Assembly: GCF_000299935.1 (NCBI RefSeq)
Contig: NZ_AMRL01000005.1
Coordinates: forward strand, 168,523-192,522
Source of the DNA: Oceanibaculum indicum P24
GTDB taxonomy: Bacteria > Pseudomonadota > Alphaproteobacteria > Oceanibaculales > Oceanibaculaceae
DNA: 24,000 nt
Reading direction: 5' to 3'
In this document: positions 2,727 through 20,540 of the stretch, piece after piece
Layout: the number at the start of each line of letters is the position of its first letter
Position numbering within the stretch: position 1 is the stretch's first letter
Notes under the pieces: generated by a model
Seen by the model: only the letters and a program-made list of their open reading frames with translations
What the model was told of the DNA's origin: nothing
Database searches by the model: none
Position numbers and translations under genes: made by a program

Positions 2727-2993
2727 TCAGACCAGGAAATTCAGATAGGAACCGCGCGGGGCGTCCATATCGATCTCGTCGGCCGCCAGCAGGCGCCCCA
2801 GCCGGGCAAGCTGCCGGCCAATCTCGGTATCGTCAATGGCGGTACGCAGGATGGAACGGCGCTGCGGTCGTTCGCGCGGGCCTTCCAGCAGGGCGTCCGG
2901 GCGCGGCTGCGCGCCCTGGCCGCGCTGAATCCGGTTGCCGGCCTGGCCTGATGCCTGGCCGCCGATGCGGGGGCCGGTTGGGTTGATCGCCAT
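2727..2993 (-). CDS. hypothetical small protein (88 aa), with a G/Q/P/R-rich N-terminal half and a helical C-terminal half
   Basis: I chose the internal ATG at 2993 because GAAGGAGAGAGCG precedes it as a strong SD; the track start at 3041 has none. GC3 is high throughout. The stop lies 14 nt before the ABC ATPase start. I recognise no family. Confidence 0.5.
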   Translation of the reverse strand: MAINPTGPRIGGQASGQAGNRIQRGQGAQPRPDALLEGPRERPQRRSILRTAIDDTEIGRQLARLGRLLAADEIDMDAPRGSYLNFLV

Positions 2994-3181
2994 CGCTCTC
3001 TCCTTCGCCGCCGGGCCTTCGCAACCTGGCGCGACGCTCAAGCGGGATTATGCCTGCAAAAGCCTGGAAATTGAAGGGTCGGCGATTGCAGACCCGGTTT
3101 TCGCTGCGCGGCTATCGTCTGTCAGGTGCGCGGGTGTAAGCTGCGGCACGGTTATCCGGAACGGATACCAGAAGGGATGTC

Positions 3182-3919
3182 ATGAATATTCTCGTCGTGC
3201 AGAACTATCCCGGCTCGCCGCCCGGCCAGCTTGGCGACAGCATGCTCGCCCGCGGCGCCACCCTGCATGAGGTGCATCCGCTGGCGGGTGAGAAGCTGCC
3301 CGCCGGTCACGATCCGTTCGATGGCGCGCTGATCCTCGGCGGGGCGCAAAGTGCCGCCGACGATGCCGGCAACCCCTATTACGCCGAGCTGCTGCCGCTG
3401 CTGCGCGGGTTCCACGAAGCCGGCAAGCCGCTGCTCGGCATCTGTCTCGGCTCGCAGCTTATGGCCCGGGTTTTCGGCAAGCGGGTCCATCGCCACAGCC
3501 ATGTCGAGTTCGGCTTCCATCCGCTGTCCCTGACGGAGGCGGGCCGTGCCGACCCGCTGTTCGCCGGCCTGCCGGCCACACCGCATCTCATGGAGTTTCA
3601 CGAGGATACGTTCGAGCTGCCGGACGAGGCGGTGCTGCTGATGACGGGTGAGGGCTGCCGCAACCAGGCCTACCGGGTGGGCGAGACAGCCTATGCCTTT
3701 CAGTGCCATATCGAGGTGACGCGCGATATTCTGGACCACTGGGCGGTCGAGCCGGCCTCGCTTGCCGCCAATGGTGGGGCCGATCCGGTGCAGCGCCTGC
3801 AGCGCGAGATGGAGGCGCATCTGGAGGCCTCGCTGGGTTTTGCCGACACGGTCGCCGTCCGTTGGCTGGAGCTTGCGGCGCGGGTGCGGCAACGCGATGG
3901 CTTGCGCAAATCCGCGTAA
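3182..3919 (+). CDS. class I glutamine amidotransferase-like protein
   Basis: It has the nucleophile elbow GICLGSQL and the His/Glu pair in FQCHIE. AAGGGA lies upstream of the ATG as an SD. Confidence 0.75.
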   Translation: MNILVVQNYPGSPPGQLGDSMLARGATLHEVHPLAGEKLPAGHDPFDGALILGGAQSAADDAGNPYYAELLPLLRGFHEAGKPLLGICLGSQLMARVFGKRVHRHSHVEFGFHPLSLTEAGRADPLFAGLPATPHLMEFHEDTFELPDEAVLLMTGEGCRNQAYRVGETAYAFQCHIEVTRDILDHWAVEPASLAANGGADPVQRLQREMEAHLEASLGFADTVAVRWLELAARVRQRDGLRKSA

Positions 3920-3962: not shown

Positions 3963-4322
3963 ATGATGGAACGGGTGAGGTCGCTGTTTCGCGCAACGCG
4001 CCTGACGAACCGGCGGCGGCATCCCCGCTATCCTGTCAGTGCCAGTGTCGAGATTCTGCATCAGGGCAATGCCGGTCGCGATGCGGAGATCACCGATGTG
4101 TCGGCTGGTGGCGCGCTGCTGATCCCGACCCTGAGCATCGAGCCGGGGCAGGAGATCGAAATCTATCATCCCGGTTCGACGATGCGGGTCAGCGCGCAGG
4201 TGATCGCCAACGATGCGGAGGGCACGCGCGTCCGCTTCCTGTCCGAAGGGGCGGGGGCCATTGTCTCGGTCTGGCTGCGCGGGTTGCATGCGCGCCCGGT
4301 GGCCGATGGGCAGGCCGGCTGA
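3963..4322 (+). CDS. stand-alone PilZ domain protein (putative c-di-GMP receptor)
   Basis: It has RRRHPR (RxxxR) and DVSAGG (D/NxSxxG) motifs at canonical spacing. I set the start at the ATG at 3963 because the track start at 3762 overlaps the preceding gene out of frame. Confidence 0.8.
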   Translation: MMERVRSLFRATRLTNRRRHPRYPVSASVEILHQGNAGRDAEITDVSAGGALLIPTLSIEPGQEIEIYHPGSTMRVSAQVIANDAEGTRVRFLSEGAGAIVSVWLRGLHARPVADGQAG

Positions 4323-4455
4323 CGGCTGACCGGGCGTTTGCAGGCCAGCTCTTCACAGGAATGTGAACAGTGCCTTTGGCACGATTCCGCGCTTTGTCGC
4401 AGAACTGCCCCAAGGGCCTCTTATTTTCGACATGATTAGACATAATATTTAGGTT

Positions 4456-4583
4456 GTAGACGCCAACACAGCCCCTCCGGCGTCTGCGATTAGGCCGCAC
4501 GGAAACCCCTTCCCCAAGCGGCCATGACCCAAAGCCCCCTCGGGCGGTGCCAATTCCCCGCTGGCACCGCCCGATTTCTTTTT
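4456..4583 (+). ncRNA. candidate small RNA with three hairpins, C-rich loops and an intrinsic terminator
   Basis: There is no credible ORF here. An AT-rich TAATAT lies at 4443-4448. Hairpins span 4456-4487, 4493-4523 and 4540-4574, with loops containing CCCCUCC, CCCCUUCCCC and UUCCCC. A U-tract follows at 4575-4583. The 5' end is inferred only. Confidence 0.4.
4540..4583 (+). terminator. Rho-independent terminator
   Basis: A perfect 13-bp stem TCGGGCGGTGCCA/TGGCACCGCCCGA with a 9-nt loop is followed by TTTCTTTTT. Confidence 0.8.
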
Positions 4584-4686
4584 GGGCCCTTCCTGCATCT
4601 GGGCAGCCCTGCGGGCGGCGGGCCTTCACACGGGCCGGGCGCAGGGCTATGAAGTCTCCTTCGCTATGCAAGGGAGCCCGCACCGC

Positions 4687-6474
4687 ATGTTCACCACCCG
4701 CCCGGAAATTCTCGGCACCTTCGGTGTCGTTGCCTCCACCCACTGGCTGGCCAGCGCCACCGGCATGGCGATCCTGGAAAAGGGCGGTAACGCCTTCGAC
4801 GCCGGCGTGGCGACCGGCTTCGCCCTGCAGGTCGTGGAACCGCACCTGAACGGCCCGGGCGGCGAGGTGCCGATCATCCTGTATGACCGCAAGGTCGGCG
4901 CGATGGAGGTGATCTGCGGTCAGGGCGTCTCTCCGGCCGCCGCCACAATGGACTATTACCGCTCGCTGGGATTCGACCTGGTGCCCGGTACCGGCCTGCT
5001 GGCCGCCACCGTGCCTGGCGCCTTCGATGCCTGGATGCTGATGCTGCGCGACCACGGCACGATGACGCTGGAGGAGGTGCTGACCCCTGCCATCGCGATG
5101 GCGGAGAATGGCTATCCGGTGGTGCCGAACATCACCAAGACGGTGGATACGGTGCGCGAGCTGTTCGCCACCGAATGGACCACCTCCGCCGCGCTTTATC
5201 TGAAGGACGGCAAGGCGCCGCAGCCGGGCAGCATCTTCCGCAATGTGAAGATGGCCGAGATGTACAAGCGCGTGCTGGCCGAGGCGAAGGCGGCCGGCGG
5301 CGACCGCGTGAAGCAGATCGAGGCGGCGCGCGCCACCTGGTACAAGGGCTTCGTGGCCGAGGCCATCGAGAAATTCTGCGCCTCGACCGCCGCGATCGAC
5401 GATTCCGGCCGGCGCAACAATGGCATCCTGACCGCCGAGGATATGGCGTCCTGGCAGGCGAACAAGGAGAAGCCGACCACCATCGACTATGGCCGCTATA
5501 CGGTCGGCGTCATCCCGCCCTGGAGCCAGGGGCCGGTGCTGGCGCAGCAGCTGGCCCTGCTGAAGGGCTACGACCTTGACAAGACCGACCCGACCGGGCC
5601 GGACTTCCTGCATCTGTTCATTGAGACGATGAAGCTGGCGATGGCCGACCGCGAGGCGTTCTACGCCGATTCGGCGCAGGTCGAGGTGCCGATGGAGACG
5701 CTGCTGTCGGAGGCGTACAACACTGAACGCCGCAAGCTTATCGGCGATACTGCCTCGAAGGAGCCGCTGCCGGGCAGCGTGCCGAGCCTCACCCGCTGGA
5801 TGGATACGGAGGCGCACAAGCGCCTGGGCCGAGCGCCGGAATACGCCAAATTCTCCATCGGCGAGCCGACCGTGCGCCGTGACGGCAACACCGCCGGCGA
5901 CACCTGCCATTTCGACATCATCGACCGCTGGGGCAACATGGTTTCCGCCACGCCCAGCGGCGGCTGGCTGCAATCCAGCCCGACCATCCCGGAACTGGGC
6001 TTCTGCCTCACCAACCGCATGCAGATGTTCTGGCTGAACGAGCAGTCGGCCGCCGCGCTGGCGCCGAAGCGCCGGCCGCGCACCACGCTGACCGCCAACA
6101 TGGCGCTGCGCGATGGCGAGCCCTACATGGCCTTCGGCACGCCGGGCGGCGACCAGCAGCCGCAATGGTCCGCGCTGCTGTTCCTGCATCACGCGCATCA
6201 CGGCATGAACCTGCAGGAATCCATCGACTGCCCGGCGCTGCATGTCGATCATCTTGTGAATTCCTTCTGGCCGCGCGCGGCGAAGTGGAACCATGTCCAG
6301 GTCGAGGGCCGGATTCCGGCTGCGACGGTCGAGGAACTGCGCCGGCGCGGGCATGACGTCACCGTGGGCGGCGACTGGTCGGAAGGCCGGCTGACGGCGG
6401 CAGCACAGACGGACGGGCTGGTGAAGGCAGCCGCCAATCCGCGCGGCATGCAGGGTTATGCCGTCGGTCGCTGA
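4687..6474 (+). CDS. gamma-glutamyltransferase family protein
   Basis: GVVASTHWLAS and LNGPGGEVP are near the N-terminus, and GDTCHFDIIDRWGNMVS gives the autoprocessing/catalytic Thr context. The ATG at 4687 has AGGGAG 10 nt upstream; 4666 is an alternative start. The track's TTG at 4582 would begin inside the terminator U-tract. Confidence 0.85.
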   Translation: MFTTRPEILGTFGVVASTHWLASATGMAILEKGGNAFDAGVATGFALQVVEPHLNGPGGEVPIILYDRKVGAMEVICGQGVSPAAATMDYYRSLGFDLVPGTGLLAATVPGAFDAWMLMLRDHGTMTLEEVLTPAIAMAENGYPVVPNITKTVDTVRELFATEWTTSAALYLKDGKAPQPGSIFRNVKMAEMYKRVLAEAKAAGGDRVKQIEAARATWYKGFVAEAIEKFCASTAAIDDSGRRNNGILTAEDMASWQANKEKPTTIDYGRYTVGVIPPWSQGPVLAQQLALLKGYDLDKTDPTGPDFLHLFIETMKLAMADREAFYADSAQVEVPMETLLSEAYNTERRKLIGDTASKEPLPGSVPSLTRWMDTEAHKRLGRAPEYAKFSIGEPTVRRDGNTAGDTCHFDIIDRWGNMVSATPSGGWLQSSPTIPELGFCLTNRMQMFWLNEQSAAALAPKRRPRTTLTANMALRDGEPYMAFGTPGGDQQPQWSALLFLHHAHHGMNLQESIDCPALHVDHLVNSFWPRAAKWNHVQVEGRIPAATVEELRRRGHDVTVGGDWSEGRLTAAAQTDGLVKAAANPRGMQGYAVGR

Positions 6475-6587: not shown

Positions 6588-6872
6588 ATGGCGGCGACGA
6601 GTAATCCCGCGCTTGCCCTGCTTGCGAAGAGCATCGCCGATGTGGTGGGTGCCAACAGCGAGCTGTATCGCGACGTGCTGCGCGCCGTCGAATCGGACGA
6701 GTATGTGGACATCATGCTGGCGCAGGCCTCCTTCGATACGCTATCCGGCGAGATCAAGCGGGAGATATCGGACCGCGTGGACGATCTTGTCGCCCAGTAT
6801 CTGGCCAAGGGGCAGTCGGTGGAGGAGATGGCGGAAGCACTGGCGGAAGATCTGCCGGATGGCATGGCCTGA
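6588..6872 (+). CDS. hypothetical acidic small protein (94 aa)
   Basis: Codon usage is good and GC3 is high. It ends 27 nt before the FliL-like gene on the same strand. I recognise no family. Confidence 0.55.
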   Translation: MAATSNPALALLAKSIADVVGANSELYRDVLRAVESDEYVDIMLAQASFDTLSGEIKREISDRVDDLVAQYLAKGQSVEEMAEALAEDLPDGMA

Positions 6873-12942: not shown

Positions 12943-13147
12943 TCCTGATTCTCCAGACTGTCGGGCAGGCAGGCGGGGAATGCCGTTTCAGCCGGCTGTA
13001 TAGCCCCTGGCGCGCGCGGGAACAATGGTCGCCGCTTCGGGCCTGTCCGGCGTCGTCGGCATGCCGCTCTTTGCGATAGAGTCTCTTAAATGCTTGTTAA
13101 CTTGTTCAGGCTATACAAAGCTTCGAACAGCGCGGCGGAATAAGAAG

Positions 13148-13327
13148 ATGCTTCTGGATATGACCGTTTCCATGCCGATGACACTCCCTCGCAGCGATAT
13201 GCTGCTCGAAGTTCTCGTTGGGCTGGCCGTGCTCCTGCAGCAGTGCCGCAACCAGAAGCCTGAGATTTCGGCGCTGGTATCCGATATCGAGAAATCCATC
13301 GAGCAGCTGCGCACTACGGGCGCCTGA
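13148..13327 (+). CDS. hypothetical small protein (59 aa), uncertain
   Basis: The ATG is preceded by GGAATAAGAAG. GC3 is only moderate and the local GC dips. The 5' part of the track ORF from 13025 crosses an AT-rich, promoter-like stretch. Confidence 0.3.
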   Translation: MLLDMTVSMPMTLPRSDMLLEVLVGLAVLLQQCRNQKPEISALVSDIEKSIEQLRTTGA

Positions 13328-13363
13328 ATAGGGGCGCCTGATCGCCGCTTCTCTCCGGACGGC

Positions 13364-13743: not shown

Positions 13744-14217
13744 ATGGCGAGTGGCAACTTCATGCTGATGTCCCTGCTGCGAAAGGTCCGCCGACCGGCG
13801 CCAGCTGTTGAGCGCCGCAACGGCATCTTCTGCTGCCGCTGCGACCGCCCCGCCGTGGTCAGCTTCGGGCTGGACGAAGCGGGGGCGCAGCGCTTTGCGC
13901 GCGGCTATCGCACCTATGTCGCCTCCGGGGAGCGCGAGGTACTGCTGCCCTTCTGTGCCGACCATTTCGAGGAGGCGGCGCTTTCCTGGCCCGGCCTGAT
14001 CGCACAGCCGGTGCAGCCGCTGCCGATCCGCTGGCGCGAGGGGGTGGCTGCCATCGCCTGGGTGAAGCACCGGCTGGACGATCCTGCCGTCCGCCGCAAG
14101 GCGCTGCGTGGGCTGGCGCGCAAGTTGCGCCCGGCTCGTCCCGCCCCAGCGGTGGGGAAGGAGCATGAGGCCATGCTGCGCCGCTTCCTGGCGGAGCGCC
14201 GGCGAGACCATCGTTAA
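13744..14217 (+). CDS. hypothetical protein (157 aa) with a CCxC...CxxH cluster and an Arg-rich tail
   Basis: GC3 is high on this strand, whereas the antisense ORF 13675-14259 has poor composition. There is no clear SD, so the start is uncertain (13744, 13762 or 13768). Confidence 0.5.
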   Translation: MASGNFMLMSLLRKVRRPAPAVERRNGIFCCRCDRPAVVSFGLDEAGAQRFARGYRTYVASGEREVLLPFCADHFEEAALSWPGLIAQPVQPLPIRWREGVAAIAWVKHRLDDPAVRRKALRGLARKLRPARPAPAVGKEHEAMLRRFLAERRRDHR

Positions 14218-14477
14218 GCGCATGGCCCTCCAGCGAAAAACCGCTATTCGAGGGGGCATGGCTATGATACATGCATATCAGTTTTAACAGCTGAACGAGT
14301 CCGGCCATGACGGCTGACCTGCGACGACGACGTACGACCTGCCCGACCGCGTTTGCGGCCGGCGCAGCCGCGTCGCCTGGTCACCGCCGGAGGGCCCGTC
14401 TGTAGGCATCCCTCCGCCCGGAGCAGGCGATGCGGTCCACTGACTGACCGACACCCTGATTCCGGGATTTTTTAGAG

Positions 14478-19698: not shown

Positions 19699-19727
19699 TT
19701 GACGGGTGCCGTGGCGCGTGCCTATCT
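19699..19727 (+). promoter_or_regulatory. sigma70-type promoter for zauP-zapA
   Basis: TTGACG-N17-CTATCT closely matches the alphaproteobacterial CTTGAC-N17-CTATAT consensus. It lies 48 nt upstream of the ATG at 19775. Confidence 0.5.
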
Positions 19728-19774
19728 TGCGCAAGCTAATTTGGCAGGAACTCTGGCAGGAATCGCCCATCATC

Positions 19775-20023
19775 ATGAAGGAAGCGCCGACCCTGGATAT
19801 GGTACTGGAGCGGTTGGCCCAGGCCGTGGCGCGGCTGGAATCGGCCCTGGCGCGGCGCGGCGGGACCGCGCTGTCGGCCGAGGCGGGTGAGGGATCGGCG
19901 GAACTGCAGCGCGCGCTGGACGATGCGCGGGCGGAGTATGCCAAGCTTTCCGAGGTGACGGGGCTGGTCTCGCAGCGGCTGGACCGCACCATCAACCGGC
20001 TGAAACTGGTTCTGGAGAAATAG
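19775..20023 (+). CDS. DUF4164-like coiled-coil protein (ZauP-like ZapA partner)
   Basis: It is an 82-aa all-helical heptad-like sequence (LERLAQAVARLESALARR...) immediately upstream of zapA. That position matches the Caulobacter ZauP-ZapA pair, by recall. Confidence 0.5.
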   Translation: MKEAPTLDMVLERLAQAVARLESALARRGGTALSAEAGEGSAELQRALDDARAEYAKLSEVTGLVSQRLDRTINRLKLVLEK

Positions 20024-20025
20024 GC

Positions 20026-20358
20026 GTGGCGTCTGTCGAGGTCTCCATCAATGGCCGGTTCTACCGCATCGCCTGCGAGGACGGGCAGGAACAGCGGCTG
20101 ATCCGCCTTGCCGGGTCGGTGGACGAGAAGGTCTCCTCCCTGGTCGAGCAGGTCGGGCAGGTCGGCGATACAAGGCTGCTGGTCATGGCCAGCCTGCTGA
20201 TCGCCGACGAGCTGGACGACGCCAAGCAGGGCAGCGTCAATGGCGGCGGAAACGGCGCGGCAGCAGCGGCTCCAGCGCAGAACCAGGCAACCATCGCGGC
20301 ACTCTCTGCCCTGGCCGAACGCATTGAGCATATTGCCGACGGGCTTGAGAACGCCTAG
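20026..20358 (+). CDS. zapA: cell division protein ZapA
   Basis: VEVSINGRFYRIACEDGQEQRLIRLA...LLVMASLLIADEL is present. It uses a GTG start and begins 2 nt after the upstream stop. Confidence 0.85.
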   Translation: MASVEVSINGRFYRIACEDGQEQRLIRLAGSVDEKVSSLVEQVGQVGDTRLLVMASLLIADELDDAKQGSVNGGGNGAAAAAPAQNQATIAALSALAERIEHIADGLENA

Positions 20359-20361
20359 ATA

Positions 20362-20540
20362 CTGAGGCGGGCGCCTGCTGCGCGGTGCGATATGGTCGCT
20401 TATGTCCCCGGGCCCAATGCTCATCTCCAGGGAACTGCCTCTGTCGGAGCCGTGGCTCCATTATGCGGTACCCACCTGCGTTGCAGGGCTAGGAGGACGA
20501 GCAAATGACCGACGGCCGAGGCGGCGGCGCCCACCTTTCT
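20362..20540 (+). ncRNA. ssrS: 6S RNA (SsrS), approximate ends
   Basis: It sits in the conserved zapA - ssrS - 5-formyl-THF cyclo-ligase synteny. The ~190-nt gap folds as one long interrupted hairpin. The closing stem is GGGCGCC (20369-20375)/GGCGCCC (20526-20532). Inner helices are GGUC/GACC and GUCC/GGAC. The apical hairpin is GGAGCC-GU-GGCUCC (20446-20459). Confidence 0.65.

Follow-up and report, generated by a model that had tools for sequence, protein, structure and literature searches.

A candidate small RNA with C-rich single-stranded motifs in the spacer between the PilZ and gamma-glutamyltransferase genes of Oceanibaculum indicum

The PilZ–GGT spacer and its predicted RNA

The window analysed here is a stretch of 24,000 nucleotides (nt) from Oceanibaculum indicum P24 (contig NZ_AMRL01000005.1, positions 168,523 to 192,522 of the forward strand), and all coordinates below are those of the window. 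It contains a spacer between the gene of a PilZ-domain protein and a gene of the gamma-glutamyltransferase (GGT) family, and this spacer holds the element under study, a candidate small-RNA gene with three hairpins. The window PilZ shares 98% identity with a protein recorded as 'MULTISPECIES Oceanibaculum', and the window GGT shares 85% identity with the GGT of O. pacificum. The stop codon of the PilZ gene occupies 4320–4322. The GGT start was placed at the ATG at 4687, because the N-terminal sequence MFTTRPEILG is kept in 22 relatives, and the spacer therefore measures 364 nt, in line with the length of about 360 nt given by the first-pass annotation, an earlier reading of the letters of this DNA. 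The coordinates which that reading gave for the three hairpins (H1, H2 and H3), for the TAATAT at 4443–4448 and for the PilZ stop at 4322 all agree with the sequence. No terminator lies between the pilZ stop (4322) and H3. The two genes and the parts of the predicted RNA are arranged as follows.

3963–4322, + strand: PilZ-domain protein gene, 119 amino acids (aa) (Pfam PF07238, E = 4.9e-10)
4456–4487, + strand: hairpin H1, stem 4456–4464/4479–4487 of 9 bp including one U-G pair, 14-nt loop AACACAGCCCCUCC
4493–4523, + strand: hairpin H2, stem 4493–4498/4518–4523 of 6 bp GC, 19-nt loop ACGGAAACCCCUUCCCCAA
4524–4539, + strand: single-stranded linker AUGACCCAAAGCCCCC(UC), unpaired probability 0.6–0.99, invariant in all clades
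4540–4583, + strand: hairpin H3 and U-tract, stem 4540–4552/4562–4574, loop AUUCCCCGC, then UUUCUUUUU (4575–4583)
4626–6474, + strand: GGT-family gene, Shine-Dalgarno (SD) site GGGAGCC, coding sequence 4687–6474 (Pfam PF01019, E = 3e-119)

Folding of 4450–4585 (+ strand) with RNAfold gave these three hairpins with a minimum free energy (MFE) of −66.4 kcal/mol, and the centroid is the same as the MFE structure. The ensemble has a single dominant fold, with an MFE frequency of 29%, and none of the 200 dinucleotide shuffles folds as stably (z = −6.87). The opposite strand has a z-score of −2.3 and a diffuse ensemble. The loop of H1 holds CCUCC, the core of the anti-Shine-Dalgarno (anti-SD) sequence of 16S rRNA, lengthened here to CCCCUCC. 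In the MFE structure the H1 stem is lengthened by up to four pairs (4452–4455/4488–4491); among these, 4455/4488 alone is retained in every clade. Within the H2 loop, the MFE structure has a weak inner helix of 4 bp between GGAA (4501–4504) and UUCC (4510–4513); hence, H2 may expose ACCCC and CCAA instead of the whole 19 nt. The linker between H2 and H3 contains a fourth C-rich single-stranded motif, CCCAAAGCCCCCUC. The stem of H3 has 13 perfect base pairs, 10 of them G-C, and is closed by a 9-nt loop. Together with the downstream UUUCUUUUU it is, by sequence and predicted fold, a canonical intrinsic (Rho-independent) terminator, as the first-pass annotation had it. A simple terminator scan missed H3 because its loop limit was 8 nt. 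Altogether, 60 nt are unpaired in the MFE structure, including 29 C (48%) and 4 G (7%), and the exposed C-rich stretches are CCCCUCC, CCCCUUCCCC, CCCCCUC, and UUCCCC.

Conservation, distribution and relation to known RNAs

Orthologous loci were gathered via contigs encoding PilZ homologues and by one metagenome pattern scan. They form four sequence clades (the window with L023 and L025–28; L029–32; L059–61; and L093), and the gene order GATase–PilZ–element–GGT–94-aa protein–FliL is found in all of them. Between the clades, 22–26% of four-fold degenerate sites differ in pilZ and 21–22% in GGT. The variable columns of the alignment are distributed over the element and its surroundings as follows.

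Upstream region, 4340–4440: 40 of 101 columns variable
H1: 6 of 32 columns variable
H1–H2 spacer: 3 of 5 columns variable
H2–linker–H3, 4493–4574: 2 of 82 columns variable
U-tract: 4 of 9 columns variable
First 17 nt past the U-tract: 13 of 17 columns variable

With a neutral rate of 0.21–0.25, 82 nt would show no more than one difference with a binomial probability of about 1e-7 to 1e-9. These counts and this probability therefore delimit a sharp-edged conserved unit whose edges match those of the predicted RNA, and purifying selection on the element, as judged from the alignment, is strong. The sole change in H2 is at 4500 (C/A), and the sole change in H3 is at 4553 (A/G), in the loop, with the H3 stem being invariant. 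No clade departs from the loop core of H1, AGCCCCUCC, or from the C-rich cores in general, and the loop sequences are conserved as highly as the stems. No stem nucleotide of H2 and H3 has changed (0/38), as against 4/20 in H1. In H1, the pair 4460/4483 changes from A-U to G-C in two clades, which is a double compensatory change; 4462/4481 changes on one side from G-C to G-U; and 4457/4486 and 4455/4488 change on one side from U-G to U-A. All four stem changes preserve the pairs, so that H1 pairing is kept in 100% of the cells. Alignment of the orthologous spacers, which the first-pass annotation had suggested, hence returned invariant loop cores together with a compensatory change in H1, so that neither of the two refuting outcomes named there for this alignment, loops that vary or stems that lack covariation, was observed. 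Invariant and unpaired C-rich seeds, accompanied by a stem kept through compensation, are what is generally looked for in a trans-acting small RNA.

The predicted RNA is shown by these comparisons to be encoded on the + strand, since the G-U pairs of H1 would be A-C mismatches on the opposite strand, the U-tract lies on one side of H3 only, and the z-scores of the two strands differ. A reading of the minus strand, in which GGA loops would make the transcript a sponge of CsrA, conflicts with the G-U pairs, the direction of the terminator and the z-score and was discarded. We also inspected the open reading frames (ORFs) that overlap the element, namely 4524–4652 (+), 4449–4598 (−), and 4338–4439 (+). 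In other clades these frames extend into regions that have indels and frameshifts, and the substitutions do not follow a codon-like pattern; the small-ORF readings were rejected for these reasons, and the earlier statement that the spacer has no credible ORF holds.

Outside the hairpins, the spacer contains four further features.

4352–4367: perfect palindrome TTCACA-GGAA-TGTGAA (inverted repeat I7), about 90–100 nt upstream of the RNA
4388–4405, + strand: conserved block GCGCTTTGTCGCAGAAC, a candidate activator site or −35-type element
4417–4449, + strand: AT-rich promoter-like region with GCCTCTTATTTTCGACATGATT and the −10-like box CAYAAT (4441–4446), among the blocks of alignment A2
4626–4656, + strand: GGT promoter-like box CTTCACA-N16-CTATGAAG, invariant with or without the small RNA (alignment A4)

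Within the conserved block, TTGTCGCAGAAC (4394–4405) does not vary among the 7 aligned sequences, which represent 4 clades (alignment A2). The following 11-nt spacer (4406–4416) varies in sequence but is fixed in length, without indels. The sequence CAYAATATT spans 4441–4449, and TAATAT (4443–4448) overlaps the −10-like box. In the clade of L059 the box changes from CATAAT to CACAAT, with A2 and T6 of the hexamer retained. From these conserved upstream blocks, the RNA probably has its own promoter in 4417–4449. If CAYAAT is the −10 element, transcription is predicted to start at about 4452–4456, at the foot of H1. If TATTTT (4422–4427) takes this role, a possible start is at about 4433, and the RNA would gain an AU-rich 5′ tail. 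The core of the palindrome, TCACnnnnnnGTGA, is kept in all clades, and its flanks are extended differently, as GCCGTTCACA/TGTGAACGGC (up to 10 bp) in L059 and as GGCGTTCAC/GTGAACGCC (9 bp) in L057. It occurs once in the window and, in the available sequence, otherwise only at the orthologous loci. No known motif was recognised in 4352–4367; the palindrome may serve a dimeric regulator as its operator or form a small hairpin at the 3′ end of pilZ.

Three known types of control were considered for the region upstream of the RNA. No EcfG box (GGAAC-N16/17-CGTT) is present there at up to one mismatch; AGAAC at 4401–4405 is followed, at N16, by TATT instead of CGTT. The Fur box expected of Fur-repressed iron-sparing small RNAs (RyhB/IsrR type) was not found either, as the best candidates match 9–11 of 19 positions and are no better than shuffles (p = 0.14–0.95) in all 4 clades. 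A sigma-54 site (TGGCAC-N5-TTGC), inspected by eye, was rejected because the GG-N10-GC spacing is wrong and the clade of L059 has a 1-nt indel. On the other side of the RNA, the SD of GGT, GGAGCC (in the region 4626–4680), is invariant, as is the promoter-like box, across Oceanibaculum lineages whose GGT proteins are about 85% identical. The −35-like box of GGT is situated, in the clade of the window, within the loop of an inverted repeat (4605–4619/4634–4648).

An alternative gene arrangement is found in O. pacificum and in three more lineages, at about 85% GGT identity; for it, the loci L001, L002, L033, L034, L213, and L214 were compared. In this arrangement a convergent glyoxalase gene follows PilZ after 5–10 nt, the order being PilZ–glyoxalase (−)–kinase–aminotransferase, and GGT lies separately behind a DUF924 gene. 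Downstream of PilZ, the element is absent in the O. pacificum-type genomes. Upstream of GGT, it is absent in 22 relatives including O. pacificum, in which DUF924 precedes GGT. The covariance model R1 found no copy at either O. pacificum-type junction (PilZ–glyoxalase and DUF924–GGT). The two arrangements become homologous again at about 4605, immediately ahead of the GGT box, and among the genomes compared the segment 4323–4604 (about 280 nt) is specific to one Oceanibaculum sub-clade. By this breakpoint comparison, the element is not obligatory as a leader of GGT or as the 3′ end of pilZ, and it is independent of PilZ, as the PilZ gene of O. pacificum lacks such a 3′ region. Imperfect direct repeats bracket the novel segment (4307–4331/4600–4624, 76%), and imperfect inverted repeats flank the element (4398–4410/4601–4613, 85%). 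The direct repeats may be chance matches in GC-rich DNA. As a separate observation, the DUF924–GGT spacer of L214 has an insertion of about 140 nt (3770–3915) that contains inverted repeats (...CCTTCGAGACGCCC...GGCGTCTCGAAG...); the insertion looks like a dispersed alphaproteobacterial element of the repetitive extragenic palindrome or miniature inverted-repeat transposable element (REP/MITE-like) kind and is unrelated to the small RNA.

We searched more widely for further copies. A cmsearch with R1 covered about 0.87 Mb, comprising the window, the related loci, and the pattern-scan loci L093–L192 and L213–L214, and turned up neither a paralogue in the window nor any distant homologue. No further copy was found by blastn over 212 loci, and BLAST in distant mode against plasmids and phages gave no match. 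The metagenome scan with CCCCTCCG-N(8–38)-AACCCCTTCCCC returned at least 120 matches, and among the matches listed there is one true homologue, L093. A pattern of three loop motifs made of C and T only gave 19 matches on viral contigs, all of them low-complexity chance matches.

At the gathering threshold, Rfam has no match in the whole window. An E-value scan of 4300–4720 (421-nt query) gave matches that are all below threshold, the best being Scr3202 of Streptomyces (RF02833), with 25.6 bits versus a gathering score of 52 (E = 0.12). The cmsearch against the alphaproteobacterial small-RNA models of Rfam that the first-pass annotation had envisaged placed no family above threshold; the CcsR1 model (RF02791) reaches 14.4 bits versus 65.3 and aligns at model positions 45–77 only, which correspond to the terminator. 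The idea put forward there of a divergent or undescribed member of the CcsR/alpha-r14 'cuckoo' type is thus borne out in one half: the RNA is undescribed, having no Rfam match above threshold, but kinship with CcsR/alpha-r14 is not supported, given the absence of CCUCCUCCC, the 14.4 bits and the context. The likeness in design principle to multi-loop anti-SD small RNAs stands as a functional analogy.

CcsR1–4 lie downstream of a small DUF1127 gene and have an RpoHI/HII promoter. This context is not shared, as the neighbours here are PilZ (PF07238) and GGT (PF01019) and no DUF1127 gene was found in the window. The stems are nearly invariant here and hypervariable in the cuckoo RNAs, and the RNA of this locus is single-copy in the window. 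Like the cuckoo RNAs (CcsR1–4/RSs0680 in Rhodobacter; alpha-r14/NfeR1 and SmelC397 in Sinorhizobium), it has an alphaproteobacterial host and ends in a terminator. Cuckoo RNAs have two to four adjacent hairpins with C-rich anti-SD-like loops, of which this RNA has three, and in both the conservation is concentrated in loops (PMC4615179). However, every cuckoo hairpin loop carries CCUCCUCCC (PMC4615179), whereas the loops here contain CCCCUCC, CCCCUUCCCC, and UUCCCCGC, and 4456–4583 has no CCUCCUCCC motif even with one mismatch.

Three other groups of RNAs share the use of C-rich single strands. The RsaE/RoxS RNAs of Firmicutes are about 100–130 nt long and pair with SD regions through CCCC/UCCC motifs, and RoxS has four C-rich regions. 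Pairing of exposed C-rich loops with SD or G-rich sites is known for RsaE/RoxS as well as for RNAIII and 6C. The RNA of Oceanibaculum is similar to RsaE/RoxS in size and in having several C-rich motifs in loops and linkers. The phyla are unrelated, however, and no Rfam RsaE match was found at E ≤ 10, so that the likeness is one of design, by convergence, and not of homology. C-rich motifs of the RsaE/RoxS kind have been discussed (PMC8216469, PMC4615179). The 6C/Scr3202 RNAs of Actinobacteria, like the RNA here, have GC-rich hairpins with C-rich loops, two of them in succession, and H2–H3 aligns over the full Scr3202 model; they differ in host phylum, the RNA here has an extra 5′ hairpin, and the match is below gathering. 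GsrN of Caulobacter and its relatives is alphaproteobacterial and has an exposed C-rich loop, as the RNA here does (PMC5869019). In contrast, GsrN has one C-rich loop, activates katG, depends on sigma-EcfG and usually lies beside ecfG/nepR/phyR, while here there is no such box and no gene of the general stress response in the window. The RNA has the C-rich-loop/anti-SD design in common with CcsR/alpha-r14, RsaE/RoxS, 6C, and GsrN, and is a member of none of them.

Proposed function and rival explanations

From comparison of the loci and predicted folding, the element most likely represents a real, non-coding small-RNA family that has not been described before and is limited to one Oceanibaculum sub-clade. 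The RNA would be about 130 nt long, or about 150 nt with a start near 4433, and would be read from the + strand with its 3′ end at the H3 terminator. Transcription would probably start from its own promoter in 4417–4449, possibly supplemented by read-through from pilZ or by processing. The three stable hairpins would present four C-rich, G-poor single strands. These could pair in trans with G-rich 5′ regions of mRNAs, chiefly SD sites of the GGAGG/AAGGGG type, and pairing would occlude ribosome binding and alter mRNA stability. For the chaperone Hfq, the usual handle would be the terminator hairpin with its U-tail. We infer trans action, the anti-SD mechanism and the involvement of Hfq. Occlusion of SD sites or G-tracts by the four C-rich motifs is the most likely mechanism and moderately favoured, because pairing by C-rich loops is established, experimentally with SD sites for cuckoo/CcsR RNAs (PMC4615179) and with G-rich mRNA leaders for the exposed cytosine-rich loop of GsrN (PMC5869019). 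The SD regions of the window genes are GGAGG, AAGGG(A/G), and AGGGG; the initiation regions of pilZ and GGT have no meaningful complementarity to the RNA.

Several points weigh against this interpretation. The small-RNA gene is predicted from sequence comparison and folding, and the alignment is shallow, being drawn from one sub-clade of one genus. H2 and H3 give no covariation support because they are invariant, and the total invariance of their stems exceeds what a seed plus scaffold needs, a hint that some extra constraint is at work. The scan upstream of the RNA yielded no consensus sigma-70 promoter, which leaves the 5′ end uncertain. When the four motifs were compared with the translation-initiation regions of about 28 window genes, no excess over random windows was found; the best duplexes are within the 0.1–1% tail of random windows and lie away from credible start sites.

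The extra constraint bears on a variant of the small-RNA interpretation, in which the gene would be very young, having arisen or been captured at the rearrangement junction, and its 3′ module would be recognised sequence-specifically. We regard this variant as improbable, though worth stating. The 82-nt 3′ module, stems included, is already near-absolutely constrained in sequence. A constraint beyond that of a seed plus scaffold suggests that H2–linker–H3 is recognised sequence-specifically, either by a protein or by extended pairing. If this were true, the transcript would be an RNA with several C-rich sites whose mechanism goes further than the mere occlusion of SD sites.

The lack of a consensus promoter also bears on a cis-acting alternative, namely that the element is a structured 3′ untranslated region of pilZ which terminates transcription, guards against 3′ exonucleases and insulates GGT, and has neither a function in trans nor a promoter of its own. 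The element indeed shares the strand of pilZ, and no terminator intervenes from 4322 to H3. This alternative is doubtful, since a terminator or stabiliser needs no three hairpins with invariant C-rich loops, and the loops are conserved like stems. Moreover, the blocks in 4388–4449 with their variable spacer of fixed length look promoter-like, and pilZ of the O. pacificum type works without any such 3′ region.

The number of similar motifs raises a further alternative, in which the RNA is a sponge or decoy that titrates a protein or a G-rich small RNA instead of regulating mRNAs directly. Four like motifs on one RNA are seen in titrating RNAs, and the contrast between the unchanged H2/H3 stems (0/38 nt) and an H1 that evolves freely by compensation suggests that the folded 3′ module is recognised sequence-specifically. 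On the other hand, GGA motifs of the CsrA type would be displayed on the minus strand only, a strand made unlikely by the G-U pairs, the orientation of the terminator and its z-score of −2.3, and we know of no C-rich-loop-binding regulator in Alphaproteobacteria. A sponge therefore appears unlikely.

The position of the terminator, 104 nt upstream of the GGT start and on the same strand, and the very high, aptamer-like conservation of H2–linker–H3 would fit a cis-acting leader of GGT, an attenuator or riboswitch-like element whose H1–H2 sense a ligand or protein and whose H3 terminates. However, GGT has its own box (CTTCACA-N16-CTATGAAG) and SD downstream of the terminator, both of which are unchanged across four lineages without the element, and conservation of box and SD in such genomes means that the element is not the GGT leader. 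Furthermore, the RNA has one dominant fold with no competing anti-terminator, contains no multi-helix junction, and matches no riboswitch in Rfam, which makes a leader function very unlikely.

Membership of the CcsR/alpha-r14 family, to which the adjacent hairpins with C-rich loops, the alphaproteobacterial host and a weak local CcsR1 match might point, is hardly credible, given that CCUCCUCCC is absent even at one mismatch, the CcsR1 match (14.4 bits versus 65.3) covers the terminator only, no other alpha-r model matches at E ≤ 10, and the PilZ/GGT context differs. Just as little credence can be given to a non-functional remnant, i.e., a repeat, MITE or rearrangement scar that folds by chance: the element does lie exactly at the synteny breakpoint relative to O. 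pacificum-type genomes and is flanked by imperfect direct (76%) and inverted (85%) repeats, but it is under strong purifying selection with sharp boundaries, the window and the searched loci contain no second copy, plasmids and phages give no match, and between clades the flanking repeats show no co-variation.

As a trans-acting small RNA, the element would be one more independent case, from the Alphaproteobacteria, of the C-rich-loop design known from CcsR/NfeR1, GsrN, RsaE/RoxS, and 6C, and such a case speaks for repeated, convergent evolution of this design; general concepts are unchanged by the finding. Literature searches found no paper describing a regulatory RNA in Oceanibaculum or its order. 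The restriction to part of a genus at a synteny breakpoint offers a possible case study of how a small-RNA gene originates and becomes fixed. Two of its features stand out, namely the apparent recent origin at a rearrangement junction and the total invariance of the 3′ module. Direct validation is feasible because the candidate is unusually clean, having sharp conservation edges, a terminator and covariation.

Other features of the window

Two small conserved ORFs lie near the locus. The gap between GGT and FliL contains an ORF for a 94-aa acidic protein (6588–6872, +) without a Pfam match, which is present at all related loci and is 79 aa long in L213. Upstream of an ABC ATPase gene, a small conserved Pro/Arg-rich ORF of 88–104 aa (2727–3041, −) likewise has no Pfam match.

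The window also contains a 6S RNA gene (ssrS) at 20372–20531 (+). Its score against Rfam RF00013, 42.5 bits (E = 6.5e-7), is just under the gathering score of 46.4, which is why the scan at gathering level passed it over. The gene is found in the canonical order DUF4164 (19706–20023)–ZapA-like ORF (20026–20358)–6S–5-formyl-tetrahydrofolate cyclo-ligase. The long ORF call for the cyclo-ligase, with its start at 20402, reaches into the 6S gene, and the true ORF is probably shorter.

Finally, two intergenic patches, at 13050–13330 and 14215–14300, are AT-rich in a window that is otherwise 66% GC. One of them precedes a possible ORF of about 60 aa (13149–13328, +). The other has GAGGGGGCATGGCTATG, with an SD-like G-run ahead of a mini-ORF of 7–9 codons.

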